Source: Candidatus Levyibacteriota bacterium (GTDB lineage: Bacteria; Patescibacteriota; Microgenomatia; Levybacterales; UBA12049). Taken from it: a stretch of DNA of 64,000 nt. The notes below the pieces were generated by a model. It saw only the letters and a list, made by a program, of their open reading frames with translations, had not been told where the DNA came from and searched no databases. The DNA lies in assembly GCA_027459725.1 (NCBI GenBank), contig DAIDHK010000003.1, positions 931 to 64,930 on the forward strand, read 5' to 3'. Shown here in pieces: positions 12,159 through 54,008 of this stretch. The position numbers were made by a program, and so were the translations under genes. Position 1 is the stretch's first letter, and each line of letters begins with the position of its first letter.

Positions 12159-12217
12159 CAGTATGATTATGGTTCGACCTCTTGCAAAGCCTAAAGATTT
12201 TGGGATACCATGAGAGT

Positions 12218-14872
12218 ATGCATTGTTATCCAAGAATATCAAAATTACTGTTTCCATTTCTTGTTTTTTTTATAGTTTTTGTTTCACTGTATAGAATTAA
12301 CTATGCTTTTGCAACGAGTAGCAATACGAGGTCATCAGGTACTTCTTTGGGAAGTGATAGTACAGTTTATACTATAGCTAACGGAGTAACTGTCACACAA
12401 TCGCCTAAAAATGTCTATGAAAATACCTCAAATATAACATTGTTGTTTAATATACCTGCTAGTAGTAATAATAATACCCCATACTATATTTTATTCTGGA
12501 ATCAGGCAAGCAATTGGCCTGACTACAATCATTGTGAGACTATAGGAAGTGAATTTCTTCTGGGAGGATGGGATAATGCTATGGGTATAGGTGGATGGTC
12601 AGGAGGCTCAAATGGAAAATGCACATTGCTTAATCCTAATGATTGGGGCAAAGATACATATACACTAGTACAAGATAAAACAGCAAAAGAGTTGACACCA
12701 TTGGGAAACAAATGGGGATATCAAGTATCAGTAAACACTTTACCTGGGGAAAGTATTAAATATAAAATTTGGCAAGGTGATGTTGAATCAAGTTATCAAG
12801 CATCCCAGATGATTGGTCAAATTAACATAGGACAATGTACTCAATCACAAAATGGCTGTCCTGGAATCGCGGTAGACAGCTACCCGGTTCAGTATGACAC
12901 TAATTTTCCTCTTTACATCGCCAATCCACATGCTGATACAGCCTACATAGTATGGTGGAAAGGATCTAATACAGTAATCTGGTCAGGCTCGTTCACTACT
13001 AACCAAATAAAAAGTGCTTCGAAATTCAACGTTATTGGCAGTAATAACTCCACCGTGTCAGTTCCCGCAATTAAGCTGCAAAACAATGGCCAGGACGTGA
13101 CACAAATAGTTTCCAGCAGCGAAGATTCGAATCTTCCAATTGATAGCAGCAATGATTTTAAGTACAAAACATTATGTCTATATCAAGCGACGCCTCAAAA
13201 TTTAGCCTCAATAATTTCAAATTTCTCGCTAAAATGTGACTCAACCGCCAAATCAACCCGAGTCTATTTCGGTATTAATGGGCAACCACTCGGGTCTGGA
13301 ACGTTACTGTCGAATGGTAACATCGGTGCTCCATCTGCTTCTGAGAACTTTAACCTGCAGTCTGTTAACACCGGATTCTTTCTACCCTGTATTTCCCCCA
13401 CGCCCACCCCAGTTAATCAAGCATATAATAGCAAGAACTCTTCAAATACATCATTTGCTGATGCTTGGAAAAATATATTGGCAGACGCCGCTTTCTTCTT
13501 TACCGGTCAATCTGCCATGCCAAGTCCAACTTCTTCCAACATAAATCAACAACTCGCCTACTCACAAATTACCCCTGCCCAAACAACTCCAGAATTTTTA
13601 ATGTCCACAACTAATCAGTCAACCACTCCCATTAGCGTCGGCCCCGCTTCTGTATCCCCAGGGGATACTTTCGTTGTTGGTTTAACATCTCCGATAAGCA
13701 ATAATTACACTCTATCTATACACGATGGTAGCAACAATAGCTTACTAAATAGCAACATTACTCAATATTGCCAATCAGGAAAAGCATGCGACTTTATTAT
13801 AAATAGCAGTAAGTATTCTAATTACAAGTTCACATTCCCTACAAATCCGCAAAACTTTCAGATCACTATCGCCGATAATAATAAAACCGTAGGTATGACA
13901 GATGTGGCATTCACCCAATCAGCATCTTCCAATGTTAATGACAGTCAAACTCAGAACACAACCACAACAAAAAATATACAAAACGATGGAACTATTACTA
14001 TACAGAATCTTGGTAACAAGCAGAATACTGGCTCTGCTAATATTTATTCCGATGACGCTTTATCGGTTTATATTTCATATAACAGCAAAACTTCTATTAA
14101 AAACTGCTCTGTAGCTATCGCGGTAAATCAATCAGCTATTACCGCACTATCGCCACAAACCTGTAACAATAGTACTTCACCGAATTCTAACACAAACTTA
14201 TTGCCTTTAGATCTATCAAAATATAGTCAGTTTGCATCTATTACTACCCCTACTGACCTCAGTCTAAGTGCGGTTGCCTATGACACTAATGGTAACATAC
14301 TTTCAATAAAGAAAGACTTTACAATCTATCCGGTTTGTGGTACTCAAGAATGCAATGGATCATGTATAAATGTGCCTGGACAAAGCCAGATTTATTGTGC
14401 AGAACCAACTAGTACGCCTACTCTTAGCCCAACACCAAACGCTCAACAGTCTATTTGCAATTCATGTTTGGCGAGTGGTACAAGCGATTGTAGTAGCGCC
14501 TGCACTGCTGCTACAACAGTTTCTGATACTCCAAGCGTAGAGACTCCAACATCATACCCTACTCCTGTAAATATAGGCTTCTCCCCCTGTTATCAGGTAG
14601 ATACCGCCATTGGAATGATAAGCACAGATCCTATTTCCTTTGTTAATAATATGTTTGATATTTTATTAAGCCTAAGCGGCGGCATTGCTCTTCTGATTAT
14701 CATCTACAACGGTTACCGCTTGTTAATCTCACGGGGCAATCCCGATGCCATCAAAAAAGCCCGTGAGGGTATTACCTCTGGTATTATTGGCATCATCTTT
14801 GCTATTCTATCTATTGCCATTCTACAAACTATTGGCGTTGATATATTACATTTGCCAGGTTTTGGCAATTAA
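12218..14872 (+). CDS. secreted Ser/Thr/Asn-rich surface protein (about 885 aa) with a C-terminal VirB2/TrbC-type pilin-like hydrophobic hairpin. Candidate pilus-tip adhesin or minor pilin fusion. The ORF opens at 12182 with TTG; the ATG at 12218 is preferred.
   Basis: Signal peptide MHCYPRISKLLFPFLVFFIVFVSLYRINYAFA. Long low-complexity Cys-containing ectodomain. The last about 90 aa 'GGIALLIIIYNGYRLLISRGNPDAIKKAREGITSGIIGIIFAILSIAILQTIGV' have the same helix-loop(K/R-rich)-helix pattern as the small pilin paralogs downstream. Confidence 0.5.
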   Translation: MHCYPRISKLLFPFLVFFIVFVSLYRINYAFATSSNTRSSGTSLGSDSTVYTIANGVTVTQSPKNVYENTSNITLLFNIPASSNNNTPYYILFWNQASNWPDYNHCETIGSEFLLGGWDNAMGIGGWSGGSNGKCTLLNPNDWGKDTYTLVQDKTAKELTPLGNKWGYQVSVNTLPGESIKYKIWQGDVESSYQASQMIGQINIGQCTQSQNGCPGIAVDSYPVQYDTNFPLYIANPHADTAYIVWWKGSNTVIWSGSFTTNQIKSASKFNVIGSNNSTVSVPAIKLQNNGQDVTQIVSSSEDSNLPIDSSNDFKYKTLCLYQATPQNLASIISNFSLKCDSTAKSTRVYFGINGQPLGSGTLLSNGNIGAPSASENFNLQSVNTGFFLPCISPTPTPVNQAYNSKNSSNTSFADAWKNILADAAFFFTGQSAMPSPTSSNINQQLAYSQITPAQTTPEFLMSTTNQSTTPISVGPASVSPGDTFVVGLTSPISNNYTLSIHDGSNNSLLNSNITQYCQSGKACDFIINSSKYSNYKFTFPTNPQNFQITIADNNKTVGMTDVAFTQSASSNVNDSQTQNTTTTKNIQNDGTITIQNLGNKQNTGSANIYSDDALSVYISYNSKTSIKNCSVAIAVNQSAITALSPQTCNNSTSPNSNTNLLPLDLSKYSQFASITTPTDLSLSAVAYDTNGNILSIKKDFTIYPVCGTQECNGSCINVPGQSQIYCAEPTSTPTLSPTPNAQQSICNSCLASGTSDCSSACTAATTVSDTPSVETPTSYPTPVNIGFSPCYQVDTAIGMISTDPISFVNNMFDILLSLSGGIALLIIIYNGYRLLISRGNPDAIKKAREGITSGIIGIIFAILSIAILQTIGVDILHLPGFGN

Positions 14873-14874
14873 CT

Positions 14875-15240
14875 ATGTTAAAAGAACATTTATTAGCCTT
14901 ATCTATTCCTGGGGAGAATGGGAGTAGCACTAATATCGTAATGCCTAACGCAGTAAACTGCGGCAGTAATGGCTGTTTGAACACAGTCATGCAATACATC
15001 ATACAATGGCTTTTCGTAGGAGCCATCATTCTTTGTCTAGCTTACCTAATCTGGGGCGGGATTGATTGGACAATGTCCTATGGAGACAAAACGAAAGTGC
15101 AAAAAGCCCGTTTAAAACTTGTGTATGCCATTATTGGTTTATTTATAGTTTTCCTCGCTTTCTTCTTTGTTAATTTGGGAGGACACTTACTTGGTCTACC
15201 TCTTACTAATGTCAGTACAACTATCAATACAACTCCTTAA
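14875..15240 (+). CDS. VirB2/TrbC-like pilin-family protein, paralog 1 (121 aa)
   Basis: N-terminal leader with a Cys pair, then 'WLFVGAIILCLAYLIWGGIDWTMSYGDKTKVQKARLKLVYAIIGLFIVFLAFFFV' (two TM helices separated by a short basic loop). It starts 2 bp after the fusion gene. Confidence 0.5.
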   Translation: MLKEHLLALSIPGENGSSTNIVMPNAVNCGSNGCLNTVMQYIIQWLFVGAIILCLAYLIWGGIDWTMSYGDKTKVQKARLKLVYAIIGLFIVFLAFFFVNLGGHLLGLPLTNVSTTINTTP

Positions 15241-16495: not shown

Positions 16496-16499
16496 AACT

Positions 16500-18041
16500 A
16501 TGAACAAATCTATTAAGCAATGTTTATCATTTATAAAAAAGCATATCTATCTCATCTTGTTAATTAGCTTTTTCTCACTTTATACTCTGGAGGGCATTTA
16601 TTTGCTCGATCCAGATTTCGGTTGGCACTTACGTTTTGGTGAAATAGTATTACAAACCCACAGTGTCCCCTTAAAAGATCTATTTTCATATACCATGCCA
16701 AGCTATGACTTCATTAATCATGAATGGTTTTCAGACGTTATTATCGCCGTTATTTACCATTTAACCGGACTTGTAGGAGTAGCTATATTTTTTGGACTAT
16801 TCGTCACTATTGGACTTGGAGTAGTAGTTAACATTGCCCAAAAGAAAGATAAGATTGGTTTCTGGCTGTCACTTTTAACTATGGTCGCTGTAACAATGGT
16901 GCAATTTGCCGGCATTCGCCCACAAGCTTTAAGCTGGACATTCTTTGTTTTAGTCTGGTATTTGTTGGATATCTCAAAAAATAAATGGCGCTTTATAATC
17001 TTGCCTATCATTTTCCTCATCTGGGCTAATCTGCACGCCGCCTTTGCTTTAGGGTTATTTCTATTTTTTGTTGCTGTCATCAATTCTTTGCTTAAAAAAG
17101 ATAGAAGCAGTATTTATCTGTTAATCTCCTTCATCATATCGACCGGGGCTACCTTGATTAACCCTTATGGATTTAAATTATGGCAAGAAGTCATTCTCAC
17201 CTCAGCTTCCCCGCAAATCTCCACTGTTGAAGAATGGACGCCAAGTTTCACCCACATTATCTTTCCCATGTGGCTATTTATTGATTTCTCATTAATTCTC
17301 CTCTGGTTCAACAGATCTAACGTAGCTAAGAAAAATATTTTTTTACTAACTGTTATTGGCATACTTTTTTTAGTAGGCATACGACAGGCTCCGCTATTTA
17401 TGTTGTTTTTATTACCTTTAGCAATTGAGGCAGTGAATGATTTCATTGACCAGGCAAAAAAATATCAGTATGCCATTAAACGCCTAAAAGTTGCATCACT
17501 AATAGTAACTATCATCACTGTTGTTTTCTGTATTATTACCTTATGGCCTCTGGAATCCAGCTTATGGAAAAGCGGATTTAACATCCAAAAAAGTATTTCA
17601 TTAACTTACCCAAGCACTTCTGTCAAATATTTAAAAACTCACCCATTTAAAGGCAATTATTATTCAATATATAACTGGGGTGGTTATTTGATCTGGCAAC
17701 TCCCTAACAAAAAAGACTTCATAGATGGTCGTATGCCTACCTGGATTAATCCCAATGCACCCAAAAATGAAAGCAAAAATGCATTGCAGGATTTTCTCAA
17801 GATAGACAATCCAAAAATACTGGACAAAACAATTCATAAGTATCATATAACCACCCTAATAATCGCACCATTGAAACAATCTGTTCCTCAATGCTGGTGG
17901 CTGCAAAACTGGTGTAATCAAGTCATCAAGCAAAGAAATAAGCAAAATCAGCCACTTGAAACTTATCTCCATATTCATCACTGGCATGAGCTAATACACG
18001 ACAAAGTCTCAGTTGTTTATCAGTTATCTGTTAGTCAGTAA
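16500..18041 (+). CDS. polytopic membrane protein, possibly a GT-C-fold glycosyltransferase (PMT/ArnT/YfhO-like), 513 aa
   Basis: About 11-12 TM helices plus a C-terminal soluble domain. An acidic loop 'LDPDFGWHLRFGE' follows TM1. It starts 4 bp after the previous gene. Confidence 0.4.
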   Translation: MNKSIKQCLSFIKKHIYLILLISFFSLYTLEGIYLLDPDFGWHLRFGEIVLQTHSVPLKDLFSYTMPSYDFINHEWFSDVIIAVIYHLTGLVGVAIFFGLFVTIGLGVVVNIAQKKDKIGFWLSLLTMVAVTMVQFAGIRPQALSWTFFVLVWYLLDISKNKWRFIILPIIFLIWANLHAAFALGLFLFFVAVINSLLKKDRSSIYLLISFIISTGATLINPYGFKLWQEVILTSASPQISTVEEWTPSFTHIIFPMWLFIDFSLILLWFNRSNVAKKNIFLLTVIGILFLVGIRQAPLFMLFLLPLAIEAVNDFIDQAKKYQYAIKRLKVASLIVTIITVVFCIITLWPLESSLWKSGFNIQKSISLTYPSTSVKYLKTHPFKGNYYSIYNWGGYLIWQLPNKKDFIDGRMPTWINPNAPKNESKNALQDFLKIDNPKILDKTIHKYHITTLIIAPLKQSVPQCWWLQNWCNQVIKQRNKQNQPLETYLHIHHWHELIHDKVSVVYQLSVSQ

Positions 18042-18097
18042 GTTATACATTGACCTCTTGACAAGTCTGTGTAATTTTAACTAGAGTATAAATAGAT

Positions 18098-18532
18098 ATG
18101 AAATTTGACTTGAAAAAATCATCGCTTTTTGCCTCTACTTTCGTGACACTAGGTGCGCTTACTACTGTTTCTTCATTTGCTGCAGGTACTGATAATGCTA
18201 TCAGCATTTGTCCTGCCGGTTCAGCTTTCTCAGGAGTCTGTAACTTTAACACTAGTACACTCTTAGGTAGTGTTATCAATGTCGTCTTCGTTATCGCTAT
18301 CTTAATCGCCCTCTTCTTCCTGATCTATGGCGGTATCCGTTGGATTATCTCCCAGGGTAATAAGGAAAAGGTTAATGGTGCTCGTGATATGTTAATCGCT
18401 GCTTTAGTAGGTTTGATTGTTGTCTTCCTCTCCTACTTCCTACTCGGTCTGGTCATACAGTTGTTATTTGGTCAGTCAACACAAAATCTGTTAAATTCAG
18501 TTACTACTAACGGTATCTTTAATACGAAATAA
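18098..18532 (+). CDS. VirB2/TrbC-like pilin-family protein, paralog 2 (144 aa)
   Basis: Signal peptide ending '...SSFAAG'. Cys pair 'CPAGSAFSGVC'. Hydrophobic hairpin 'VINVVFVIAILIALFFLIYGGIRWIISQGNKEKVNGARDMLIAALVGLIVVFLSYFLLGLVIQLLF'. Confidence 0.6.
   Translation: MKFDLKKSSLFASTFVTLGALTTVSSFAAGTDNAISICPAGSAFSGVCNFNTSTLLGSVINVVFVIAILIALFFLIYGGIRWIISQGNKEKVNGARDMLIAALVGLIVVFLSYFLLGLVIQLLFGQSTQNLLNSVTTNGIFNTK
18206..18474 (+). repeat. copy A of a 269-bp near-identical segment (2 mismatches) shared by the tandem pilin genes
   Basis: Direct comparison of 18206..18474 with 18739..19007. They differ only at A/G 18366 vs 18899 and A/G 18466 vs 18999. Confidence 0.85.
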
Positions 18533-18636
18533 ATAGTTCTTAATGCTCTCCTCCTTTTAGTCTCATTTCCTAATTTCTGTTTTTAGAGTCAACCATTGAC
18601 AAATCATATTGGCTGCGTTTAAAGTATTAATATACC

Positions 18637-19206
18637 ATGAAAATAAGTATTAAAAGATTTGCCACCGGTTTAATCAGCATTAGTAGTTTAGTTGCCTTTT
18701 CAGCTACTCCAGCATTTGCAGGCGGTAATGTTGTTAGTATTTGTCCTGCCGGTTCAGCTTTCTCAGGAGTCTGTAACTTTAACACTAGTACACTCTTAGG
18801 TAGTGTTATCAATGTCGTCTTCGTTATCGCTATCTTAATCGCCCTCTTCTTCCTGATCTATGGCGGTATCCGTTGGATTATCTCCCAGGGTAATAAGGAG
18901 AAGGTTAATGGTGCTCGTGATATGTTAATCGCTGCTTTAGTAGGTTTGATTGTTGTCTTCCTCTCCTACTTCCTACTCGGTCTGGTCATACAGTTGTTGT
19001 TTGGTCAAACTACTCAGAACTTACTTAACTCTGTTACAAGTAATGGAATATTTAATAGCGGAGTTACTAATTCTCAGTCTCTTCCTTCTTGTTCATCCTA
19101 TTGTCCTAACACAAGTACATGTCTGGCAAATAATGTAAATGCTAGTGCTTATCAAGGGTGTATAACAAACTGCGAAACTAACCACGGTGGAGGTCAATGT
19201 AATTAA
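18637..19206 (+). CDS. VirB2/TrbC-like pilin-family protein, paralog 3 (189 aa), with a divergent N-terminus and an extra Cys-rich C-terminal tail
   Basis: The core is identical to paralog 2. The C-terminal extension 'PSCSSYCPNTSTCLANNVNASAYQGCITNCETNHGGGQCN' contains 7 cysteines. Confidence 0.6.
   Translation: MKISIKRFATGLISISSLVAFSATPAFAGGNVVSICPAGSAFSGVCNFNTSTLLGSVINVVFVIAILIALFFLIYGGIRWIISQGNKEKVNGARDMLIAALVGLIVVFLSYFLLGLVIQLLFGQTTQNLLNSVTSNGIFNSGVTNSQSLPSCSSYCPNTSTCLANNVNASAYQGCITNCETNHGGGQCN
18739..19007 (+). repeat. copy B of the 269-bp near-identical pilin core segment
   Basis: See copy A. The mirrored spurious antisense ORFs in the track (18043..18279 and 18627..18812, both starting MITLPKSVLVLKLQTPEKAEPAGQ) also reveal the duplication. 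Confidence 0.85.
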
Positions 19207-19253: not shown

Positions 19254-19610
19254 ATGGACTGGAATAATTGTCTGCAGAATGTAACAGATTCTTCAAATAA
19301 AGTGGTTGGCCAAGCTGCCACATTAAACTGTGTACCCGTACTCTTCTCTAACTTAGTCAATGCTGCGTTTGTCTTTGCTGGTAGTGTTGCAGTCATCTTT
19401 ATTATTTGGTCAGGAATTCAATATATAATGTCAGGTGGGGACCCTAAAAAGGCCGAGGGCGCGAAGAAAACATTAACCTGGTCTATCATAGGACTTTTAC
19501 TCATTGTCTTCTCTGTGGCGATTATAAACATCCTAGCAACCATTACAGGCGCTCATTGCATCACTATGTTTGGATTTAACAACTGTCAGACCAATATCGC
19601 AGGCAATTAG
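19254..19610 (+). CDS. VirB2/TrbC-like pilin-family protein, paralog 4 (118 aa)
   Basis: 'LVNAAFVFAGSVAVIFIIWSGIQYIMSGGDPKKAEGAKKTLTWSIIGLLLIVFSVAIINILATI' shows the same helix-basic loop-helix pattern. There are Cys residues in the leader and the tail. Confidence 0.5.
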   Translation: MDWNNCLQNVTDSSNKVVGQAATLNCVPVLFSNLVNAAFVFAGSVAVIFIIWSGIQYIMSGGDPKKAEGAKKTLTWSIIGLLLIVFSVAIINILATITGAHCITMFGFNNCQTNIAGN

Positions 19611-19629: not shown

Positions 19630-19995
19630 TTAATTCTGCGCATTTCCTTCGCTCTTAATTATTTTATTCAATTCTTCTTTTGTTACTGACAAGTCTGAAT
19701 CATCTTTTATGCTCATTAAATATTGATCAAAAGACTGCTGTGTCTGCTTAAGAACATCTGGATAAAGATCTCCTTCCATTTTACGCTTCCCATCTTTAAT
19801 TTCTTCCATAGCAATTTGTAAGTTAGTCTGTACCTGCATTTCAAATAAAGAGTCGTAAGTTGTCCAGAGAATCTGATCCACAACATAATGCTCTGATTCA
19901 TCCATCGTGTCATATTTGGTCGCTAGTTCCTCCTGAAAGCTTTTTTCAAAAGGTAAAAGTTTGATTAAATCTTTCGTTTTATGTGCTTTGTCCAT
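19630..19995 (-). CDS. hypothetical acidic cytoplasmic protein, 121 aa
   Basis: ORF immediately downstream (minus strand) of the 1073-aa gene, with 5-bp spacing. Confidence 0.45.
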   Translation of the reverse strand: MDKAHKTKDLIKLLPFEKSFQEELATKYDTMDESEHYVVDQILWTTYDSLFEMQVQTNLQIAMEEIKDGKRKMEGDLYPDVLKQTQQSFDQYLMSIKDDSDLSVTKEELNKIIKSEGNAQN

Positions 19996-20000
19996 AGTTT

Positions 20001-23000
20001 TTATGCCGCACGTGAATTATCCAACGCTTGGGCACCAATATAATTAATCGCTCGGATAAAAAATCTTCGCATATGATGTGGGTCTACTGACCCACTTCTA
20101 GTCGCTGTATTCAAGGCCGTAAGGACTTGTGCTATATCACCTTGCACAGCAGGTGCTAAATTCAACTGGGCCGTTTCATTTAACATTTCCGCCATTCTTT
20201 CTGGTGGTAATACATGCGTCAACCATACCACATCATTGGAACTACTCAGTACTCTTAGCATATCAAAATATCCCCTTGGTAAAGTTCTTAAATGACCATC
20301 TCTCAACATCTCAGCGTATACAGGATTATTGTTAGGTAAAGTCGAGGTGTCAAATACATAGTCCGCATCAGGCTTCCCACCAGCGGCATCACGAATATAG
20401 CGTAAAATTAGATCTGCCTTTCCATCACTGAGAATTATCGGCAATTCATCACACAAATGACCTGCATGCGTCAGATGATCCGTTATCTCTCTCATATCGT
20501 CAGTAGAATTCTTGCGCTCTCTCAGTCTGGTCACTATATTTTCTCTTTCGCTGGCTTCCCTATTAATGATCCCCAGACGTACATTATAAATATTGTTTCT
20601 ATAATCAGTAATTACTGCTTGAATTAAATTGATATTATTAGTTCTTGCTGTAGGAGTGGGTGCCCCCGTAAATGGATCCAAACTTGCATCCCACCCTGTA
20701 ACTGGCGCCACAACATTTACACTTACATAAATATCATCATATATTTCATCAGCAGTATGAGTTATAAAATCATTATCCCAAACTTGAAAATCTCGAAGCT
20801 GTATTCTATTTTGCAAGATACCGGCTCTAGGAGCGGCAGATCGATCCGGTTCGATATTCAAAGCTCTTTCTTCTATACGAGCATGCTCAAGGTTACGACG
20901 AATATCTGCATTTGGTGACCACCCCATCTCTGTTACAGCAATATGATTTAGATTAGGTGGAAGAGGCACGGTAGTATTGTTCCAGCCAAAGGTGCCAAAA
21001 CGAGTGCGAATAGTGTGTATAAAGTTGAGCCTTGCTGTTATTTGCTGAGGATCTAATGAGCGAATATCGATATTTGCTCTCCAATAAGTGGGGACTGCTG
21101 GAGGAGGAACATTTGGTACGGTATTAAAGTCTGTTGTCCATTGATTATTTGGCCCGCTTATTACATTAACTAATTCAGCTGGTAATGTTCCACCTGATAT
21201 TAAGGTTCTTAAATGTGCGATAAATGCATTAGCATATAACATTTGCACCTCCAGATTATCTCTTTCACTTTCCAAACTACTAAGTACCCTACGCTCCGCA
21301 GACACAATATCTGCTCCATTACTTAAAGCATCCAGCTTGCTATTAATTTTATTTCGTAATTCTACTAATCTATCATATCGAGTCTGATCCTCCTCTTTAT
21401 CTCTCCTTACTTCTGCCATACCTGCTTCATAGATAGCATTAACCTCTTCATTTATTGTCTGTCTAGCACTTTCAGCTGCCTTGCCTGAAACTGTAACCAA
21501 ACCGAATCTTCTATTTCTCTCCCTTTCTCTAGTCACTCTTAAGTCAGCAACTCTACCTGCAAAAGATGTAGGTCCAGTATCAACGTTGAGTACTCTGTGC
21601 AATCTATTTATCTCTGCATTTAGGTCTATTAAAGAGTTATACCCAAACTCTTGTGTGACCGCTTCTCGTGCCGCATTGAGCTCGCCTACTGCATCAGAAT
21701 ATGCCTTCAGCGCATCTCGATCCCCTTTCATGACATTTGCCTCCTCCTCTATAGCTTTGGCTTGTCTCTCAATTTGTTCATCTCTCTCTTGTTTCAGCTT
21801 GCCCCCTTCGATCGCTTCTAAGCGAGCTTTTATGGCTTTCGGACCCACCTCAGCTAATTTGGCTCTTTGCTCCGCCACCAAACTCTTGGTGGCAAAAAAT
21901 AGCATGGTTTCTTGCTTGGCCTTGGCCATCCGCTTCAAGCTTTCCACCATATCAATATGGTTCCTATCAAAATTGTTATTAGGTACCCACTTTCCACCTA
22001 CCTCGTGCATAGGTGATACATATTTAAATGCACCACGAGGAGGAGGGTTACTGTGGCGGGATACGATACCTGCCCTATTAGGATTCCAGCGTCGGGTAAA
22101 TTCTTGTTGCCAATGTGTCCCAAGCTGTTCAGTAGAACCATCTAGATAGGCATAAATGGCTTGTTCAGGACTGGCATCTAATTTTTCGGTGGGTACACCC
22201 AAAGCCTCATAAAATTCTCTACGGATCTCAATACCATTCAAAACACTATCTTGCAAATCTTGCACATCAACCGTGCTCTCGGGGACGAATTGATTTTTAT
22301 TTCTGTTTTGGCGCAGTCTAGTAATCATTCCACCGGCCATATTATAATCATTGACATCTATACCAAAAGCCGCCTTTACATAAGCTGCTTCCGCTGGATC
22401 CACCTGGACATATCGGAAAGCATCTCGACAAAACTTCAGCTGATCGACATCACCATTGCGGATTGCCCAGGCAATGGGCTCGTAAATTCCTCTCACCGCA
22501 TCAATACCTACCCCAGCTACCCCTATGGCAGCGGCTCCAAAAGCCACAGCAGGCACACCTCCGGCAGCATACAATCCCACACCACCTCCAGCCACACCAA
22601 CCAACCCAGCTACTTTGGCGATCTTCTCATTGACGGGATTTGGCAACCAGCGGAAAAATTTATTTAAAAAACCTTGTCGCCTACCGGTCACAGCCAAAAT
22701 CTCATTGGCTATTCTTCTTCGTTCACCTGCTGGCAAATGGACTGCCACTTGTCCCAATGCAAAAGCTCTATACTTGGTTCTTTCTTCTCTCAGAGCCGTA
22801 ACGGCCATTAAATGATCAGGGTCCTTCAGATATTCCTTGATTTTTTTCTCATCTATGACTTGATTGCCGGCATTGTCGGTGGTGACAATAGCCTCGAGCA
22901 TTGCATTTTCACCGGGGTGATTTTGGGCTGAAACAACTGCCAATTGCGGATTGCTCTCACGCAACTTGAGCATACCTGTGGCGAAAGATCTCAATAATCT

Positions 23001-23222
23001 AAAATATTCTTTTCTAACTTTTTCTGGAATATGGACCTCTTCTGAAACTTCTTTTTCTGTGGATTTGTGTGTTCTTGCATCTCTAGTACGACTGGAGTCA
23101 TCATCAATGAAAAATTCAGACCTATTGATCAACAAGCCGCCCTCTTCTTGCTTATGCTCACCTATCTTTTGTTTTTTCTTGCCACCTTCAAGGGCAGCAT
23201 CTAAACTTACTTCCGATGACAT
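20001..23222 (-). CDS. large hypothetical protein, 1073 aa, with one Gly/Ala-rich hydrophobic hairpin
   Basis: 3.2-kb ORF. A segment 'KVAGLVGVAGGGVGLYAAGGVPAVAFGAAAIGVAGVGIDAV' (glycine-zipper-like) lies about 200 aa from the N-terminus. No P-loop. Confidence 0.6.
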   Translation of the reverse strand: MSSEVSLDAALEGGKKKQKIGEHKQEEGGLLINRSEFFIDDDSSRTRDARTHKSTEKEVSEEVHIPEKVRKEYFRLLRSFATGMLKLRESNPQLAVVSAQNHPGENAMLEAIVTTDNAGNQVIDEKKIKEYLKDPDHLMAVTALREERTKYRAFALGQVAVHLPAGERRRIANEILAVTGRRQGFLNKFFRWLPNPVNEKIAKVAGLVGVAGGGVGLYAAGGVPAVAFGAAAIGVAGVGIDAVRGIYEPIAWAIRNGDVDQLKFCRDAFRYVQVDPAEAAYVKAAFGIDVNDYNMAGGMITRLRQNRNKNQFVPESTVDVQDLQDSVLNGIEIRREFYEALGVPTEKLDASPEQAIYAYLDGSTEQLGTHWQQEFTRRWNPNRAGIVSRHSNPPPRGAFKYVSPMHEVGGKWVPNNNFDRNHIDMVESLKRMAKAKQETMLFFATKSLVAEQRAKLAEVGPKAIKARLEAIEGGKLKQERDEQIERQAKAIEEEANVMKGDRDALKAYSDAVGELNAAREAVTQEFGYNSLIDLNAEINRLHRVLNVDTGPTSFAGRVADLRVTRERERNRRFGLVTVSGKAAESARQTINEEVNAIYEAGMAEVRRDKEEDQTRYDRLVELRNKINSKLDALSNGADIVSAERRVLSSLESERDNLEVQMLYANAFIAHLRTLISGGTLPAELVNVISGPNNQWTTDFNTVPNVPPPAVPTYWRANIDIRSLDPQQITARLNFIHTIRTRFGTFGWNNTTVPLPPNLNHIAVTEMGWSPNADIRRNLEHARIEERALNIEPDRSAAPRAGILQNRIQLRDFQVWDNDFITHTADEIYDDIYVSVNVVAPVTGWDASLDPFTGAPTPTARTNNINLIQAVITDYRNNIYNVRLGIINREASERENIVTRLRERKNSTDDMREITDHLTHAGHLCDELPIILSDGKADLILRYIRDAAGGKPDADYVFDTSTLPNNNPVYAEMLRDGHLRTLPRGYFDMLRVLSSSNDVVWLTHVLPPERMAEMLNETAQLNLAPAVQGDIAQVLTALNTATRSGSVDPHHMRRFFIRAINYIGAQALDNSRAA

Positions 23223-24669: not shown

Positions 24670-26241
24670 ATGGAAAGCAATCATCCTATACCACAAGATG
24701 TCACAGGATTTCAGTTTAAGTTAATCGGCGCGATGACGGTTAAGCAATTTTTGTATCTGGCTGTACCCTCGGTAGTGGCTTGGGTATTCTATTCAGCACC
24801 TTTTTTACCCTGGTTTGTTAAGTATCCAATAATTCTATTCTTAGCCATCGGCGCAGTAGTTATGGCTTTTTTACCTATTGAAGGTCGTCCGGCTGATGTA
24901 ATGTTAAAACACTTCTTCGAAGCGCTATTTGCGCCCAATCAGTTTATTTATCAGAAAACAGGACAAAAACTTGCCTTTACCACCATCTCTACTCAATCCG
25001 TACAGAAACGACCTGCAGTTAATCCACTTGCCCAGGCAGAACAAATCAAGACAAGACAGCTACAGGCATTACTACAATCATCTCAACATGAGAATCTGAT
25101 GGATGATCGTGAATCATCATTTATGCAAAAAGTTTCTTCTCTTATGCCACCCCCACCGGTAGTTAATCAAACAGCCAGCACCGGAGGCAAGGGTATTTTG
25201 CCTTTCCACTTACCACAAATATTCTCTCGACCACTGCCTTCTAAGCCGGTGCTTTCCAATTTTAAAATGGTAGATTTGGGCAATCAACCAGAACCAGAAA
25301 ATAAGCCCATTCCTGTCGATCAATCAAAAAAAGATGAGACAGAAAAAGTTACCCCCATAGTTGCATCTAACCCAGCACCAATTATGGTGTTACATCAAAC
25401 ACCCGAACCTAAAACCACCAATCTACCTATAGAACAGCCATCTATTATTCCCAATACGCCCATCACACAATCGACACCAATCCCGACAGTTAGCACTTCA
25501 ACTACTCCAGTAGCCTCACCATATCCCAAGCCAGAACCTTTGACTCAAGGTGTTAATCAAACCACCCTAAACTACGATGAGCAGCTGAAAAAGTTACAGT
25601 CTGAAAAAGAGAGAATGGAAAAGGAACTAGCTACATTGAGGAAACAACAGGAACAAACTCCGGTAAGCTCACCAGTTCCAGTCCCGCAAACTCATGTAGT
25701 AGATACTCCTGTTGTTACGCCACCTACTTCAGTCTCACTTGTTAATCAAACAACTGCCCCTACCTCCACTCAATCAACACCAGCACATCCTATGCAACCA
25801 GTTACTCCTGTTGTAGCTACTCCTACTCCTACTCCTACTACCCCAATCATGCCTAAAACTCCTGCTGGATATGAACCACCACATGTAGCTAAAATTCCAG
25901 CGGCAATGGCTAAAAACATGGGCCTACCAAGCATACCCGATTCTCCTAATTTAATTACCGGTATAGTACGTGATCCACGCGGGAATATTCTGCCAAATAT
26001 TTTGGTCGAAGTTAAAGATAAAGAAGGAAATCCAGTTAGAGCTTTCAAAACCAATCAACTCGGTCAGTTTGCATCAGCGACACCTTTACTAAATGGAACT
26101 TATACTATTAATTTTGAAGACTTAACAGGACAACATAAATTTGATGTTATTGAGATTATAGCCAAGGGTACAGTCTTATTACCTATTGGAGTGATCTCTC
26201 ACGATGCACGTGAAGAATTACGTAAAGCATTATTTTCTTAG
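24670..26241 (+). CDS. PrgI/TcpE (VirB3)-like membrane protein with a long Pro/Thr-rich extension and a C-terminal carboxypeptidase-regulatory-like beta-sandwich motif (523 aa)
   Basis: The N-terminus 'FQFKLIGAMTVKQFLYLAVPSVVAWVFY...PIEGRPADVMLKHFFEALFAPNQFIYQK' matches the PrgI-family pattern (F..K..G.mT.RQFlyl...GRP.D.wl..f...l..P..y.w.k). It sits directly upstream of VirB4. The C-terminal 'GIVRDPRGNILPNILVEVKDKEGNPV' is CarboxypepD_reg-like. Confidence 0.5.
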   Translation: MESNHPIPQDVTGFQFKLIGAMTVKQFLYLAVPSVVAWVFYSAPFLPWFVKYPIILFLAIGAVVMAFLPIEGRPADVMLKHFFEALFAPNQFIYQKTGQKLAFTTISTQSVQKRPAVNPLAQAEQIKTRQLQALLQSSQHENLMDDRESSFMQKVSSLMPPPPVVNQTASTGGKGILPFHLPQIFSRPLPSKPVLSNFKMVDLGNQPEPENKPIPVDQSKKDETEKVTPIVASNPAPIMVLHQTPEPKTTNLPIEQPSIIPNTPITQSTPIPTVSTSTTPVASPYPKPEPLTQGVNQTTLNYDEQLKKLQSEKERMEKELATLRKQQEQTPVSSPVPVPQTHVVDTPVVTPPTSVSLVNQTTAPTSTQSTPAHPMQPVTPVVATPTPTPTTPIMPKTPAGYEPPHVAKIPAAMAKNMGLPSIPDSPNLITGIVRDPRGNILPNILVEVKDKEGNPVRAFKTNQLGQFASATPLLNGTYTINFEDLTGQHKFDVIEIIAKGTVLLPIGVISHDAREELRKALFS

Positions 26242-26246
26242 TAACT

Positions 26247-26897
26247 ATGGCTGCCCAAAAAATTCACTCATCAACTCAAAAATTTACAGAGATAGTCGAT
26301 ATCGTTGACAATATCGTTGTACTCGAGGGAGGATATGCTTGCGTAGTAATCGAGCTAACGGCTACTAATTTTGCTTTACTCTCCCGGCAGGAACAAGATG
26401 CAAAAATCTATGCCTATGCTGGTCTGCTTAACTCTTTAAATTTCCCCATTCAAGTATTAGTCCGAAATAAAAGAGTAGATATCACATCCTATCTCAATCA
26501 GTTAGATGACGCTGAAAAAAGAACTGCTAATAATCAATTGAAAGAGCAAATTGAACAATATAAAAGTTTTGTTAATGAGATGGTGACTGTGAATGTGGTG
26601 TTAAACAAGCAATTCTACATCGTTATATCTTATTCTTCTTTAGAAGGTGGTATCGGTGCTATAGCTCCGGGTAAAGGCAGTCAGAAAGATGCGTTTGTTG
26701 CAGCCGCTAGTAAAACCTTATTAACCAAAGCCGAATCTATTCACGGCCAACTTAATCAATTAGCAAGTACAGCCAGACTTTTGGACCGAGAAGAACTTAT
26801 AAAATTATTCTATGATATTTATAACAATGATCTTGTCGAACCCAACCAAATAGTAACAGACATTACGACACCGATAATTCGTTCGGCAAGTAAATAA
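26247..26897 (+). CDS. hypothetical cytoplasmic protein, 216 aa. Weak resemblance to the N-terminal domain of VirB4/TrbE-family ATPases.
   Basis: 'IVDNIVVLEGGYACVVIELTATNFALLSRQEQDAKIYAYAGLLNSLNFPIQVLVRNKRVD' parallels the start of Agrobacterium-type VirB4 ('IVLLEDGS..A.I.GV.FELEE.E....R..AFNTLLRNI....VSIYAHLVR'). This is a pattern-level resemblance only. Confidence 0.4.
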   Translation: MAAQKIHSSTQKFTEIVDIVDNIVVLEGGYACVVIELTATNFALLSRQEQDAKIYAYAGLLNSLNFPIQVLVRNKRVDITSYLNQLDDAEKRTANNQLKEQIEQYKSFVNEMVTVNVVLNKQFYIVISYSSLEGGIGAIAPGKGSQKDAFVAAASKTLLTKAESIHGQLNQLASTARLLDREELIKLFYDIYNNDLVEPNQIVTDITTPIIRSASK

Positions 26898-26940
26898 AAA
26901 GTGTCTGTAAACAACTTTAATATTATTACACTAATTAATT

Positions 26941-29091
26941 ATGGCTTTATTTGGTAAAAAGAAAAATCAAACTAATCAAACACCAGCAGCAGCTGCTCAA
27001 GCAGCTGGTAATAGAGCCGTGCAGCAGTTGCAAAAAGGTATGGTGTCTTTGGTAGACATTATAGCCCCTTCTTCGATCGAAGTTGATTTTAAATACATTC
27101 GAATTGGTGAAACCTACTACACCACTCTATTTGTGGTTGGGTATCCCCGTTTCGTATCGACCAACTGGTTACAGCCGTTGGTAGACTTTGACCATACACT
27201 GGATATTTCGATGTTTGCCTATCCGACTTCGGGAGCCGATGTACTAGGAGACTTGAAGCGTAAGATTGCTGAAATGGAAGCCACTATTTCTTCTGATATT
27301 GAAAGAGGTAAACCAGCTGATCCAACCGTACAAGCGGCACTGGAAGATGCATTGGCTTTACAAGAAGAATTAGCGAAAGGTATTGAAAGATTTTTTCAGT
27401 TTAGTTTTTATATCACCATTTCAGCAGAGAGCCTACAAGATCTCCAGGATACAGAGAAAAGATTAAAAACCACTCTAGCCTCAGTATTACTCAGTGCCAA
27501 ATCGGCAACTTTGCAGATGGAAGACGGCTTCAAAACCACTCTACCAATTGCCCAAGATCGCCTAGCTATAACTCGCAACATGGACACCACCTCTCTGGCC
27601 TCAACGTTTCCTTTCACATCGGCCGTATTAACTCAAAATAATGGTGTTTTATATGGACTAAACCGTCAAAATGGCTCTTTAATTATTTTTGACCGTTTTT
27701 CCCTAGAAAATGCCAACGAAGTAGTACTAGGAAAATCTGGATCAGGAAAATCCTATACCATTAAACTGGAGATCATGCGCCAATTTATGCTTGGCGCGGA
27801 AGTTATTGTTATTGACCCTGAAGGAGAATACGAAACATTAACACAGGCCATGGGAGGAGAAGTAGTCAGCTTTTCTGCCAATGACCCAATCAAGATTAAT
27901 CCTTTTGATCTATCAGAATTATATGAGGAAGGAGAGAATGAGTTGGGCTTAAAAATTCTTTCCTTACATGGTCTGCTAAAAATTATCATGGGTAATATTG
28001 ACGCCGAACACGAAGCGATTCTGGATAAAGCCCTGGTGGAAACTTATCGGCAAAAAGGCATCACACCCGATCCCTCCACTCAAAAAAAAGACCCACCTTT
28101 AATGGAGGACCTATACAAGGTTTTACTTGGCTACGAAAATGCTGCAGCACGTGAACTCGCCTATCGGTTAGAAAAGTTTATCAAAGGCTCAGCAGCGGGT
28201 ATTTTTAATCAAAAATCCAATTTCGACCTAAAGAATCCTTTAACTGTTTTTAATATACAACAGCTAGAAGAAGATCTTCGACCGATTGCAATGCACATCA
28301 TCTTAGATTTTGTTTGGACAAAAGTGAAAAAGACCTTGAAAAAACGAGTATTAGTACTTGATGAAGCTTGGTATATGATGAAATATCAGGATTCTGCTTC
28401 GTTTGTCTACTCAATAGCTAAGCGTGCAAGAAAGTATTATTTGGGTATGACTACTGCCACTCAGGATGTAGAGGATTTTCTTTCCACCGATTATGGAAAA
28501 GCAGTTTTAACCAACTCATCTATCCAAATTTTACTTAAACAAGGCACTGCTGAGGTTGATATGGTGTCAGATACGTTTTACCTAACTGAGGGGGAGAAAG
28601 AACTGCTTGTCTCAGCCGATATAGGGGAAGGGTTGTTTTTTGCCGGTCAAAATCATGTGGCCATCAAAATCATCGCAGCTCCTTACGAGAACGACATGAT
28701 TACATCCAATCCGGCAGAACTTCTTAAACAACAGGAATCAGTAACAGAACATCCAATAATAGAAGAAACACCAGTCGCACAACCCGAAACGACAAGTAGT
28801 AGCTATGCAAAAAAGACAGATGATTTAATAGGTTCACTAGACGCACGTGCGAAACAAATATCTAATCAGTTTGCGCAACAAGCCTCTAGTCCTTTTAGCC
28901 CGGCTACTCCTACTCCTACTCCTACTCCTACTCCTACTCCTACTCCTACTCCACCAACCCCTACACAAGCAGTACAGCAACCTACTGTAACAAACACTTT
29001 ACAGTCTAACAATAACCAGTCTTTCCAACCGCCAATTCCAACGGCAATTCCTCCTCAAGCAGTACCAACTGAGCCGTCAAAACCATTTTAA
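26941..29091 (+). CDS. VirB4/TraC/PrgJ-family type IV secretion ATPase (716 aa) with a C-terminal Pro-Thr repeat tail
   Basis: Walker A 'VLGKSGSGKSY' and Walker B 'VLVLDEAWYMM'. An N-terminal 'IRIGETYYTTLFVVGYPRFVSTNWLQPL' VirB4 N-domain pattern. A C-terminal '(TP)n' low-complexity tail. Confidence 0.85.
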   Translation: MALFGKKKNQTNQTPAAAAQAAGNRAVQQLQKGMVSLVDIIAPSSIEVDFKYIRIGETYYTTLFVVGYPRFVSTNWLQPLVDFDHTLDISMFAYPTSGADVLGDLKRKIAEMEATISSDIERGKPADPTVQAALEDALALQEELAKGIERFFQFSFYITISAESLQDLQDTEKRLKTTLASVLLSAKSATLQMEDGFKTTLPIAQDRLAITRNMDTTSLASTFPFTSAVLTQNNGVLYGLNRQNGSLIIFDRFSLENANEVVLGKSGSGKSYTIKLEIMRQFMLGAEVIVIDPEGEYETLTQAMGGEVVSFSANDPIKINPFDLSELYEEGENELGLKILSLHGLLKIIMGNIDAEHEAILDKALVETYRQKGITPDPSTQKKDPPLMEDLYKVLLGYENAAARELAYRLEKFIKGSAAGIFNQKSNFDLKNPLTVFNIQQLEEDLRPIAMHIILDFVWTKVKKTLKKRVLVLDEAWYMMKYQDSASFVYSIAKRARKYYLGMTTATQDVEDFLSTDYGKAVLTNSSIQILLKQGTAEVDMVSDTFYLTEGEKELLVSADIGEGLFFAGQNHVAIKIIAAPYENDMITSNPAELLKQQESVTEHPIIEETPVAQPETTSSSYAKKTDDLIGSLDARAKQISNQFAQQASSPFSPATPTPTPTPTPTPTPTPPTPTQAVQQPTVTNTLQSNNNQSFQPPIPTAIPPQAVPTEPSKPF
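28906..28953 (+). repeat. hexanucleotide microsatellite (ACTCCT)x8, in frame inside the VirB4 C-terminus (encodes (TP)8)
   Basis: Seen directly in the sequence. The same ACTCCT unit occurs x3 at 25818..25835 in the PrgI-like gene. Confidence 0.8.
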
Positions 29092-29130
29092 ATGATTAAC
29101 AGTCCATGGCCTGTATAGTATACTCATATT

Positions 29131-32568
<3,438 letters not shown>

Positions 32569-32616
32569 GAATTAGTAATTGTAATGATATTTCTAAGCTA
32601 ATATAATAAATTTATA

Positions 32617-33762
32617 ATGCGAGATTTAAATAAACTATATATATTCTATGGAGCCATGTCCGTAGGTATACTGACCGTAATTGTACTAACTGTGTTTTAC
32701 CTATTTAACAATACTAATCATATAAATATCAATAAGCTAAACCTACCCGCCCCAAACCAAATCTCTAACACCCCAATTCAAATAAATAATAACGCCACTA
32801 ATTATACTCGCGCTCAAATTCAAGCAAATCCCGACCTACTTAATGGAATGACCGCATTTTCTGACCATTATTACCAAAATAATATATATTATTTGTCTGA
32901 CGGCAGAAACAGATTTTATGAATATTCTATAGACGATAAAGGTGTAACCCCATATTCAGATCCATTAGCAGCAACTATCCAGGGAGTATTCTGGTCACCG
33001 AACGCGCGATCTGCAGTTATTCAAATCTTAAACAATAAATATCAGCTTAATCGCGTGTCTAGCCCCTTTTTATCTCTTCGAGACGCGGATGATACACTTA
33101 CAAATTGGTATTATAATTTTGCTTCTAAAACATACTTCCAGCTTCCCACCAATGCTATAGATTTCTCTTTCTCTGACGCTAACAAGCTTGCTTTTATAAC
33201 TAAAGACTCCAGTACTCTAAGTTCCCTCAATGTACTACAAAATTCTCAATCGGCAAATTCTGCACAGAAAATTCTCTCTTTTAAGTCCTCACAGGATACT
33301 TTATCCTTTCTCGACGAAGACCATATTTTATTAACAGACTCTACAGGGAATAATCCTGGCATATTCATAATAGATTTAAAGACAAAAAGTTCAACGTTGC
33401 TTGCTAATACAAATCAGTTATACGGAATAAGAATGTCTCCTAATAAGCAGCAATTTTTGGGTCTTTTAAAGACCTCAGATGGATATACTTCTTTAGTAAT
33501 TTATAATTTAAACTCAAAACTTATCGAAGATTTACAAATACAATGCCCATTAGAAGATACAGCTTGGGAACAAAACAATGCCAGCATTGTCGTTTTAAAG
33601 AATAATTCCTTGGAAAAAATAACTCTAAATCCATTAACTACTATGTCCGTTGCTCTACCATCAGATCTGGTGTCGACCAATATATTAGCTAATAGTCTTT
33701 TGGCTATAAGTAACAATGTCTTTTTCATTAATGAAAATTTATTCTATCGCGTTACATTTTAA
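32617..33762 (+). CDS. N-terminally anchored extracytoplasmic protein of unknown function (381 aa). Candidate VirB8/TcpC-like scaffold, which is speculative.
   Basis: Single TM 'YGAMSVGILTVIVLTVFYLF', then an Asn/Ser-rich domain. The position between the VirB1-like and CHAP genes is the basis for the role guess. Confidence 0.45.
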   Translation: MRDLNKLYIFYGAMSVGILTVIVLTVFYLFNNTNHININKLNLPAPNQISNTPIQINNNATNYTRAQIQANPDLLNGMTAFSDHYYQNNIYYLSDGRNRFYEYSIDDKGVTPYSDPLAATIQGVFWSPNARSAVIQILNNKYQLNRVSSPFLSLRDADDTLTNWYYNFASKTYFQLPTNAIDFSFSDANKLAFITKDSSTLSSLNVLQNSQSANSAQKILSFKSSQDTLSFLDEDHILLTDSTGNNPGIFIIDLKTKSSTLLANTNQLYGIRMSPNKQQFLGLLKTSDGYTSLVIYNLNSKLIEDLQIQCPLEDTAWEQNNASIVVLKNNSLEKITLNPLTTMSVALPSDLVSTNILANSLLAISNNVFFINENLFYRVTF

Positions 33763-33765
33763 TTT

Positions 33766-34626
33766 TTGAAGTATACAAATATGCGTCTTCTTCTTTTTTT
33801 TATTCTTGCTGCTTTGACATTTACTCTTTATACCTACCCAGTTCTTGCACAGGACGCCACAAGCAATTGTGTGATAACAGATATTGGAAATAGCAACTCT
33901 AGTTCTATTCCGGCTAACTGCCAGAATACAGGCAATCAAAGTTCTTCTGGGAATGGTCAAGTTGGACCATCTGTAAATACCGGAAATGCAATAGTTGATT
34001 TAGCCGGGGATCTAATAAATGCAGCCCAAGTTGATTGTCATGCAAATACTGGAGCGGAATTTTCTGCCACTGCGAGCGAACAAACAGATAAATCTGGAGT
34101 TATAAGAGATGACAATCCATCATGTCTTAACACCGATGTGACTGCTATTCTTTCTTCAAAAGGATTAGGTCAGAATGCTGCCTCAACAATTAATCAAATA
34201 GCATTTTCAATAACACAAGGGGCAAACGAAACAGACATTTTGGGCCAAGTACATAAATATTTTCAATGTGTTGGTTTTGCCCAGACTGTCCTACAAGCAC
34301 TTTATACCAATGTAACATCAGGTATTACAGTAGGCAGTACCCACTTCCCTCCTGGATTCAGCGACATCGGAGTTTCGTATGTTAATGGGCAAGCAAGTCC
34401 AATGCCCCAACCGGGAGATATTGCTGAATTAGATAATTTTGGCCATGTTGCAATTGTTAGCTCTGTACGCAATAATGGAGATGGAACATATTATTTCACA
34501 GTCATGGAGGCAAATTATTGTTTTTACGGATGGTTGAATAATAATGAAACTACTTCTTGTAGAACAGTAGGAAAATATATTCCGAGTGATGCTCCTGGAA
34601 TTGAAGCATGGGTAAGAAAAGAATAA
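33766..34626 (+). CDS. secreted CHAP-domain peptidoglycan hydrolase (286 aa)
   Basis: Signal peptide 'MRLLLFFILAALTFTLYTYPVLAQD'. CHAP Cys/His motifs 'HKYFQCVGFAQTV' ... 'GDIAELDNFGHVAIVSSV' ... 'TVMEANY'. Confidence 0.55.
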   Translation: MKYTNMRLLLFFILAALTFTLYTYPVLAQDATSNCVITDIGNSNSSSIPANCQNTGNQSSSGNGQVGPSVNTGNAIVDLAGDLINAAQVDCHANTGAEFSATASEQTDKSGVIRDDNPSCLNTDVTAILSSKGLGQNAASTINQIAFSITQGANETDILGQVHKYFQCVGFAQTVLQALYTNVTSGITVGSTHFPPGFSDIGVSYVNGQASPMPQPGDIAELDNFGHVAIVSSVRNNGDGTYYFTVMEANYCFYGWLNNNETTSCRTVGKYIPSDAPGIEAWVRKE

Positions 34627-34627
34627 T

Positions 34628-35338
34628 ATGAGTAATAACCATAAATTAATCTTTCTTTATTTAGGAATGGGATTATTTGTTTTTGTTTTAATCTTATTTT
34701 TGTTCTTCAGCTTTAATAAAGGAATTTCTACTCATTCAAATCAACAAATAACACCAACTATAATTAACCTCCAAAGCGGTATAAAAGTTCTTCAAACTTC
34801 TCCTTCTAACAAAGCAACTGATGTTTCTATCAACACTTCTAGCTTAGAAATTACTTTCAATAATCCAGTTTCAATTCAACAAAACGACATTTCTATACTC
34901 CCCACTACAGAGTTCTCATATCATATTCAGGGCAACGAGCTATTTATTATTCCTACAAACAGTCTTATTTCTAGTAGCCATTATGCTGTAACTGTTAAAT
35001 ACTCGGGCGCTAATGGCGTAGCCCAGTACGAAACATTTACTTTTACTACTACTGGACCTACCCCCACACCTCTGCCATCTTCAAATGATAATTACAGCCA
35101 ACAGTTAGGCAATTTTATTCAAACACACCATCCTGAACTAGTGTTGGTCAACAATTTGCCATATCAAAATGAAAATTTTTCAGCTATATATATAGATCAA
35201 CAAAATCAACCTTTTAAATTTGTTGTTAGTTCAAAAAATGGAAATCTGAATTCTGCCAAACAAGCATTTATTTCATGGGCTGAATCATTAGGAATTACAC
35301 CTTCGCAACTTAACTCTTTGGATATAACCTATCAGTAA
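34628..35338 (+). CDS. N-terminally anchored extracytoplasmic protein, 236 aa. Unknown, with an Ig-like beta domain.
   Basis: TM 'LIFLYLGMGLFVFVLILFLFFSF'. Its stop codon abuts the dnaN stop on the opposite strand. Confidence 0.45.
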   Translation: MSNNHKLIFLYLGMGLFVFVLILFLFFSFNKGISTHSNQQITPTIINLQSGIKVLQTSPSNKATDVSINTSSLEITFNNPVSIQQNDISILPTTEFSYHIQGNELFIIPTNSLISSSHYAVTVKYSGANGVAQYETFTFTTTGPTPTPLPSSNDNYSQQLGNFIQTHHPELVLVNNLPYQNENFSAIYIDQQNQPFKFVVSSKNGNLNSAKQAFISWAESLGITPSQLNSLDITYQ

Positions 35339-54000: not shown

Positions 54001-54008
54001 TAAAGAAT

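Follow-up and report, generated by a model that had tools for sequence, protein, structure and literature searches.

Probable gene conversion of the membrane core between two tandem VirB2-like pilin genes of a Candidatus Levyibacteriota bacterium

Arrays of VirB2-like pilin genes are widespread in Patescibacteria, and the single system tested by experiment shows them to be essential to epibiotic life (summary in PMC12102498). According to the survey of 441 arrays, each holds 2–11 genes, they are most abundant in Microgenomatia and Saccharimonadia, and the T4SS (type IV secretion system) is often found near dnaA; the identity of pilins within an array has a mean of 25% and a maximum of 54%, and the survey contains no description of conversion tracts (PMC12102498). 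Here, we analyse a stretch of 64,000 nucleotides from a Candidatus Levyibacteriota bacterium (the window, meaning the whole of this DNA), in which two neighbouring VirB2-like pilin genes, g1 and g2, have an almost identical 269-nt core set between diverged ends. The pair is very probably a set of old tandem paralogs carrying a recent and sharply bounded gene-conversion tract.

The tufA and tufB genes of Salmonella and Escherichia coli undergo RecA-dependent conversion, which keeps their synonymous sites near-identical while the flanking DNA diverges; there, the whole coding sequence is homogenised between copies that lie far apart, whereas in g1 and g2 only the central part is involved and the copies are 533 bp apart. 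In Neisseria, the type IV pilin gene pilE receives variable regions from the promoterless silent donor cassettes of pilS, and the process depends on a guanine-quadruplex (G4) element. The Neisseria system has non-reciprocal recombination between copies of a pilin gene in common with our reading of g1 and g2, but none of the other features (a type IV pilin, silent donors, transfer of variable regions, or G4) was found at this locus. In the Trw T4SS of Bartonella, the tandem copies of trwL (VirB2) and trwJ (VirB5) show concerted evolution and diversifying selection (PMC2610397 and PMC3483213, citing Nystedt et al. 2008, Mol Biol Evol 25:287). The likeness extends to tandem T4SS pilin paralogs in a host-dependent bacterium, recombination between copies, and variable surface-exposed parts; however, Bartonella is a diderm alphaproteobacterium with another class of T4SS and 5–8 copies (PMC2610397, PMC3483213), whereas the window has one sharply bounded tract over the membrane core. 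The surveyed arrays of Patescibacteria resemble the window in the pilin family, the tandem arrangement, and a monoderm-type T4SS (VirB4, PrgI/VirB3, and VirB6-like) near dnaA, but their pilins are at most 54% identical (PMC12102498), whereas g1 and g2 share 79% of their amino acids (aa) overall and 100% over an 89-aa core.

The stretch from 18098 to 19206 runs exactly from the start of g1 to the stop of g2 and consists of two intact open reading frames (ORFs) on the same strand. By the ORF list and Pfam, g1 (18098..18532, plus strand) encodes a 144-aa VirB2-like T4SS pilin of family PF18895 with a short C-terminus, and g2 (18637..19206, plus strand) a 189-aa member of the same family with a Cys-rich C-terminal tail. 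The intergenic sequence (18533–18636) is unique, resembling neither the sequence upstream of g1 nor that downstream of g2, and no intrinsic terminators were predicted between the pilin genes. Inside the genes, 18206..18474 (plus strand; residues 37–125 of g1) and 18739..19007 (plus strand; residues 35–123 of g2) form a direct repeat with a spacing of 533 nt, as reported by the repeat finder, which takes up the central 62% of g1 and 47% of g2. This segment encodes a Cys-Cys loop, transmembrane (TM) helix 1, the basic loop SQGNKEKVNGAR, and TM helix 2.

An earlier interpretation made from the letters alone (the sequence-only reading) had put the difference between the two segments at 2 of 269 positions, and a direct count agrees. 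The mismatches, at 18367 and 18466, are A/G transitions with the A in g1 and the G in g2, and both are synonymous (GAA/GAG for Glu and TTA/TTG for Leu); the longest mismatch-free run within the tract is 161 nt. Its edges are sharp, at 18205/18206 and 18474/18475, and since the nearest mismatches outside it fall at 18205 and 18475, the tract measures exactly 269 nt. When the 73 mismatches were reshuffled over the 426 aligned nucleotides, none of 100,000 permutations gave a run of at least 269 nt with two or fewer mismatches, and the longest reached 97 nt. The same reading had described the termini as diverged, which they are, and as unrelated, which they are not: the 5' parts encode homologous Sec-type signal peptides ending in (A/S)FA with 10 of 34 aa identical, and the codons that follow the core retain 15 of 18 aa.

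The loci of the two closest genomes, L001 and L002, each have a single-copy pilin gene at this site, and g1 is the positional and N-terminal ortholog of the one in L001. Across the core, g1 and g2 are separated by a synonymous divergence (dS) of 0.031 (2 of 65 synonymous sites) and a nonsynonymous divergence (dN) of 0. The same core compared with L001 and L002 gives a proportion of differing synonymous sites (pS) of 0.71–0.82, which is saturated, with a dN of 0.05–0.08; amino acid identity over the core is 100% between g1 and g2, 94% between g1 and L001, and 90% with L002. Because synonymous sites are saturated between the genomes while dN is low, the identity of the core DNA in g1 and g2 does not come from constraint on the protein.

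The flanks are a different matter. The 5' flanks of g1 and g2 have a pS of 0.685 and a dN of 0.67. In the 3' flank, taken as the 18 codons after the core, 15 codons differ, 12 of them synonymously only, and dN is 0.116. The flanks of the pair are as far apart as those of different genomes. Synonymous change with the residues kept, as in the 3' flank, implies long divergence under purifying selection, which rules out a young whole-gene duplicate with rapidly changed ends.

The groupings are also incongruent along the gene: over the core g1 goes with g2, but in the 5' flank and the promoter it goes with L001. Amino acid identity in the 5' flank is 46% between g1 and L001 (MKFDLKK... vs. MKFDLRK...) and 29% between g1 and g2; g2 is likewise 29% identical to L002, a value equal to that against g1, and a grouping of g2 with L002 is not resolved. 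The 3' flank of g2 is no closer to anything else than to g1 and L001. Low synonymous divergence of the core within one genome against saturation between genomes, a bounded tract, and old flanks make up the pattern by which concerted evolution is recognised. The sequence-only reading had suggested recent conversion homogenising the core between ends that stay diverged, and had proposed a substitution analysis of the ends against the core as a check; that analysis and the incongruent groupings both bear the suggestion out.

In the sequence of events that we favour, g1 and g2 would be old tandem paralogs within the VirB2-like pilin family of the Candidate Phyla Radiation (CPR)/Patescibacteria, and each has a promoter-like site and a signal peptide of its own. 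By non-reciprocal homologous recombination in the recent past (intrachromosomal gene conversion), possibly the last of several such events, 269 nt of one copy would have been written onto the other, so that the transferred segment would be the entire polymerisation core, from the Cys-Cys loop through TM1 and the basic loop to TM2. Two synonymous substitutions would have accumulated since then, and on that count the transfer would have at most a few percent of the age of the flanks. The mechanism may well be of the RecA/RuvABC type. The genes ruvC, ruvA, and ruvB are clustered at 52765–55052 in the window, and with their products encoded there, Holliday-junction processing is available. The cluster is worth recording in its own right as a case of a reduced genome that retains Holliday-junction processing genes. 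So understood, g1/g2 is a single ordinary event of a known process, the concerted evolution of T4SS pilin paralogs, in a known kind of locus, and no new mechanism is involved.

Several points weigh against gene conversion between old paralogs and should be kept in mind. There is a single assembly of this genome, with the singletons P0001 and P0002 both on the same NCBI contig. The searched collections hold no close relative with both g1 and g2. The flank comparisons span few codons (18–35). Finally, the two nearest genomes have one gene here, and the age of the duplication rests on divergence and not on common presence.

The last of these points would be expected if the whole gene had recently been duplicated in tandem, with the ends of one copy then replaced by a foreign or other allele, or diverging fast, and the core being simply the part not yet changed. 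The g1-type promoter and g2-type tail remnant of L002 (discussed below) are also compatible with a single tailed ancestor. We nevertheless regard such a history as improbable: the 3' flank, with three residues changed among its many altered codons, looks like long neutral divergence under purifying selection and not like fast adaptive change; replacing both ends would need two extra recombinations and an unseen donor; and the 3' flank of g2, being as near to g1 and L001 as to anything, is not obviously foreign. One might also ask whether the near-identity or the tandem arrangement arose during the building of a short-read metagenome-assembled genome (MAG), through wrongly resolved repeats, mixed strains, or polishing, as the contig is of the metagenome type and was seen once, and the 161-nt exact repeat exceeds common k-mers. 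Assemblers, however, collapse or break repeats and do not confer full identity on sequences that are 70% alike. Neither ORF is disrupted, the tract itself contains two synonymous differences, the unique intergenic sequence is not expected from the joining of two strain alleles, and a comparable mosaic pair is found in L052, an independent contig from another sample; an artefact is thus very unlikely.

Diversity-generating retroelements (DGRs) are common in CPR bacteria, and one that targets the pilin, or else an expression site served by silent cassettes as in pilE/pilS, would make the locus a device for programmed variation. We give this only the slightest credence, although both core differences are an A in g1 and a G in g2, and although pilin paralog arrays of host-associated bacteria are often tied to variation (PMC12102498, PMC2610397). 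Neither copy lacks a start codon, a signal peptide, or a promoter-like site, and what they have in common is the conserved membrane core rather than a variable region exposed on the surface. No extra partial or silent copies of the core or flanks occur in the 64-kb window, and no G4 motif was found near the pilin genes; silent cassettes and G4-driven variation were rejected on these grounds. A DGR was rejected as well: no reverse-transcriptase match was found among the scanned window ORFs of at least 100 aa, only 2 of 51 adenines differ and both differences are synonymous transitions, and the variable block of L052 differs at all four bases. The "cassette-like exchange" of the sequence-only reading is therefore not supported, as the window has no promoterless silent copies, both genes are complete, and the exchanged part is the conserved core.

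How unusual gene conversion of this kind is among pilin arrays was assessed in 85 fetched loci plus the window, with within-locus pairs drawn from loci having at least two pilin genes (n = 231). Two or more PF18895 genes stand in tandem in 70 of the 86 sequences with a match, and the array itself is ordinary. The median amino acid identity across the within-locus pairs is 41%. The minimum pS in any 30-codon window, by contrast, is 0.0 for g1/g2 and 0.04 for one pair in L052, against at least 0.29 for all others, and a tract of this kind is thus present in 2 of the 231 pairs. Pairs from L071, L008, L073, L045, L007, and other loci (minimum pS 0.29–0.38) were considered as conversions and rejected, since they form the lower edge of a continuous distribution whose 1% quantile is 0.29. 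The g1/g2 pair is an outlier against the published maximum of identity, rare in the family but not unique.

The second mosaic pair (L052:1250-2395, contig Ga0335394_10143658) consists of genes at 1335–1736 and 2160–2393+, with another pilin gene between them. The promoter and signal peptide match over about 145 nt apart from 2 mismatches, and TM1 matches over at least 75 nt without any; between these identical stretches lies a 69-nt block, the Cys-Cys loop, with 28 differences, which affect all four bases and are not DGR-like. L052 is an unrelated metagenome contig whose mosaic is the reverse of the window's, and this pair too suggests that array members exchange segments. The published picture is one of uniformly divergent array paralogs; the g1/g2 and L052 pairs indicate that members do recombine with one another and that entire structural modules can be reset in this way. 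This bears on how trees of pilin paralogs are read, on whether different pilins co-assemble, and on whether arrays can grow and shrink by recombination.

The Cys-rich tail of g2 (19060..19203, plus strand) comprises 48 aa with 6 Cys; it is predicted from hydropathy to be extracellular, and its predicted local distance difference test (pLDDT) score in the structural model is below 50, too low for a confident fold. The protein has 8 Cys in total. The conserved N-terminal loop accounts for 2 of them and the tail for the other 6, one fewer than the seven that the sequence-only reading had counted. Nor is it likely that the second copy gained this tail, as had been proposed, because a remnant in L002 and tails in distant relatives make it more likely to be ancestral. 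P0005, a more distant homologue of 190 aa, has a homologous and similar Cys-rich tail, and longer ones are found in several other members of the family (P0018, P0025, P0028, P0042, and P0047).

Right after the stop of the L002 single-copy gene, at L002:3031-3195, and also in L003–L005, there is a decayed remnant of a g2-type tail. In L002 the recognisable part (L002:3043-3156) is read in another frame and is interrupted by two in-frame stops. Alignment matches four of the Cys positions and pairs a fifth with one of these stops, and the alignment score of 90 compares with maxima of 57 and 47 in two shuffle controls. Scars of a second pilin copy were looked for in L001, and none were found. The L002 gene thus combines a g1-type promoter with the remnant of a g2-type tail, which fits a single tailed ancestral gene that was duplicated in the lineage of the window, and fits equally a g1+g2 pair as the ancestor, reduced in the lineage of L002 to a g1-5'::g2-3' hybrid by recombination between the common cores. 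Under either history, the tail predates the split between the lineages of the window and L002.

In solved VirB2-type pili, the parts equivalent to the Cys loop, the two membrane helices, and the basic loop between them pack against each other and against lipid. Once the predicted signal peptides are removed, g1 and g2 would not differ anywhere in these parts. The differences between the mature proteins amount to about 7 residues at the N-terminus, 3 among the 18 residues that follow the core, and the 48-aa tail, which g2 alone carries. Both genes are probably expressed, and identical cores would let the two products co-assemble, with g2 displaying a disulfide-rich module on the surface. As DNA, the 269-nt direct repeats would be a substrate for deletion or amplification, and deletion would leave a g1-5'::g2-3' hybrid. 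Homogenisation is not needed for function, because most arrays have very different cores, and the conversion may simply be neutral.

A broader model, which we put forward as a speculation with a small chance of being right, is that CPR pilin arrays evolve by modular exchange, the modules being the promoter with the signal peptide, then the Cys-loop, the hairpin in the membrane, and the tail. In this genome, the exchange would hold the cores of the plain and the tailed pilin alike, and a single filament could then contain both; the subunit with the tail would present a disulfide-rich module for binding the host, and the repeats would allow reversible switching, through deletion or duplication, between two genes and a hybrid single gene with the promoter of g1 and the tail of g2. 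The architecture of L002 could be the fossil of such a repeat deletion. If the model were true, modular exchange would give an epibiont a simple recombinational means of varying the surface with which it contacts its host.

Both genes are preceded by promoter-like sites. That of g1 (18058..18087, plus strand; 10 of 12 matches in the scan) reads TTGACA-18-TAGAGT and ends 11 nt before the ATG, and that of g2 (18596..18625, plus strand) reads TTGACA-18-TAAAGT, with hexamers and spacing as in g1 but a diverged spacer. The promoter-like layout that had been noticed upstream of both copies is indeed present and is better written as TTGACAA-N17-TA(G/A)AGTAT(A/T)AATA, ending 6–7 nt before the ATG. By a hand count from the printed alignment, the 43 nt upstream of the g1 ATG are 86–91% identical to the regions upstream of the L001 and L002 orthologs; the upstream region of g2 keeps the hexamers and spacing alone and is far less like that of g1 than those of L001 and L002 are. 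These conserved noncoding regions (18049–18097 in the window, L001:9951-10000, and L002:2530-2578) contrast with the saturation of synonymous sites between the same genomes. In g1 the -10-like hexamer ends 11 nt before the start codon, and there is no Shine–Dalgarno motif. These features suggest that the promoter is under strong constraint and that the messenger RNA has almost no leader.

The signal peptides each span 28 codons on the plus strand outside the tract, that of g1 (18098..18181) ending in SFA and that of g2 (18637..18720) in AFA. F27 and A28 are almost invariant across the pilin family (the AFA motif), and the cleavage site of g1 is placed provisionally by the AXA motif.

The identification of g1 and g2 as VirB2/TrbC-like T4SS pilins is secure from family and context, with PF18895 (T4SS_pilin) matches of 32.0 bits for g1 and 31.3 bits for g2 against a gathering cut-off of 26.6. 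The label "pilin" in the sequence-only reading therefore holds in the sense of a T4SS (VirB2-like) pilin, but not in that of a type IV pilus pilin. The latter (PilA/PilE) was tried and rejected, there being no N_methyl or pilin Pfam match, and the N-termini are of the Sec type ending in AFA and are not prepilin leaders. Hydropathy shows two hydrophobic segments joined by the basic loop SQGNKEKVNGAR, and the AlphaFold2 model of g2, built on an alignment of 82 sequences, has helices at residues 50–82 and 87–122 with pLDDT 84–93. The order of parts is that of PF18895 proteins, namely a signal peptide followed by a two-helix hydrophobic hairpin with a short basic loop. The positive-inside rule would put the Cys-Cys loop near the N-terminus, as well as the C-terminal tail, on the extracellular side. 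Foldseek with this model against the PDB gave no match at E <= 0.001, a bare helical hairpin offering too little signal, and a profile search of PDB sequences found no relative.

The array has five PF18895 genes in all, upstream of a CPR-type T4SS cluster. A third tandem pilin, g3 (19254..19610, plus strand, 118 aa), follows g2 outside the tract, and two more members occupy 12182..15240 (plus strand): one is an 896-aa protein that ends in a pilin domain, the other a pilin of 121 aa (14875–15240, plus strand). The genes at 19254 and 14875 also match PF04956 (TrbC/VirB2) below threshold. The T4SS cluster (24670..35338, plus strand), which is presumably the system that the pilins serve, starts about 5.5 kb downstream with a PrgI/VirB3-like protein (24670, plus strand). 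It continues with a 216-aa protein on the plus strand, the L001 counterpart of which is annotated as TraC-like; a VirB4/TraG-P-loop ATPase (26941–29091, plus strand) about 8 kb downstream; a 1145-aa protein; a CHAP hydrolase (33766, plus strand); and a Big_5 protein. It adjoins dnaN and dnaA (35339–38109), which follow on the minus strand.

L001 has the same T4SS synteny. The genome-collection scan returned one relative, the nearest genome, which is the Candidatus Levyibacteriota MAG DAIDHL010000002.1; its gene order is the same and neighbouring proteins are 71–89% identical. The bacterium that carries g1 and g2 is a Levyibacteria-like CPR organism, tiny and of the symbiotic type.

Some further features of the neighbourhood deserve a record. 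The 896-aa product of 12182–14872 is secreted and rich in Ser, Thr, and Asn, with a Cys-rich segment followed by the C-terminal PF18895 domain (residues 820–882), and it appears to be a pilin-anchored surface protein; its C-terminal motif GVDILHLPGFG is also present in L052, in the first ORF. The pilin array also encloses genes for two large polytopic membrane proteins of 410 and 513 aa (15263–18041), which are syntenic in L001 and L002; neither has a Pfam or NCBIfam match. Between the array and the T4SS genes (19630–24563), there are ORFs of 1073 and 121 aa on the minus strand and one of 433 aa on the plus strand, which gave no family match and whose positions are kept in L001 and L002. Beyond the T4SS cluster, in the origin region, an insertion sequence-type transposase (38413–39489; rve integrase core, helix-turn-helix, and Mu-transposase C-terminal domain) lies between dnaA and rnpA/yidC.

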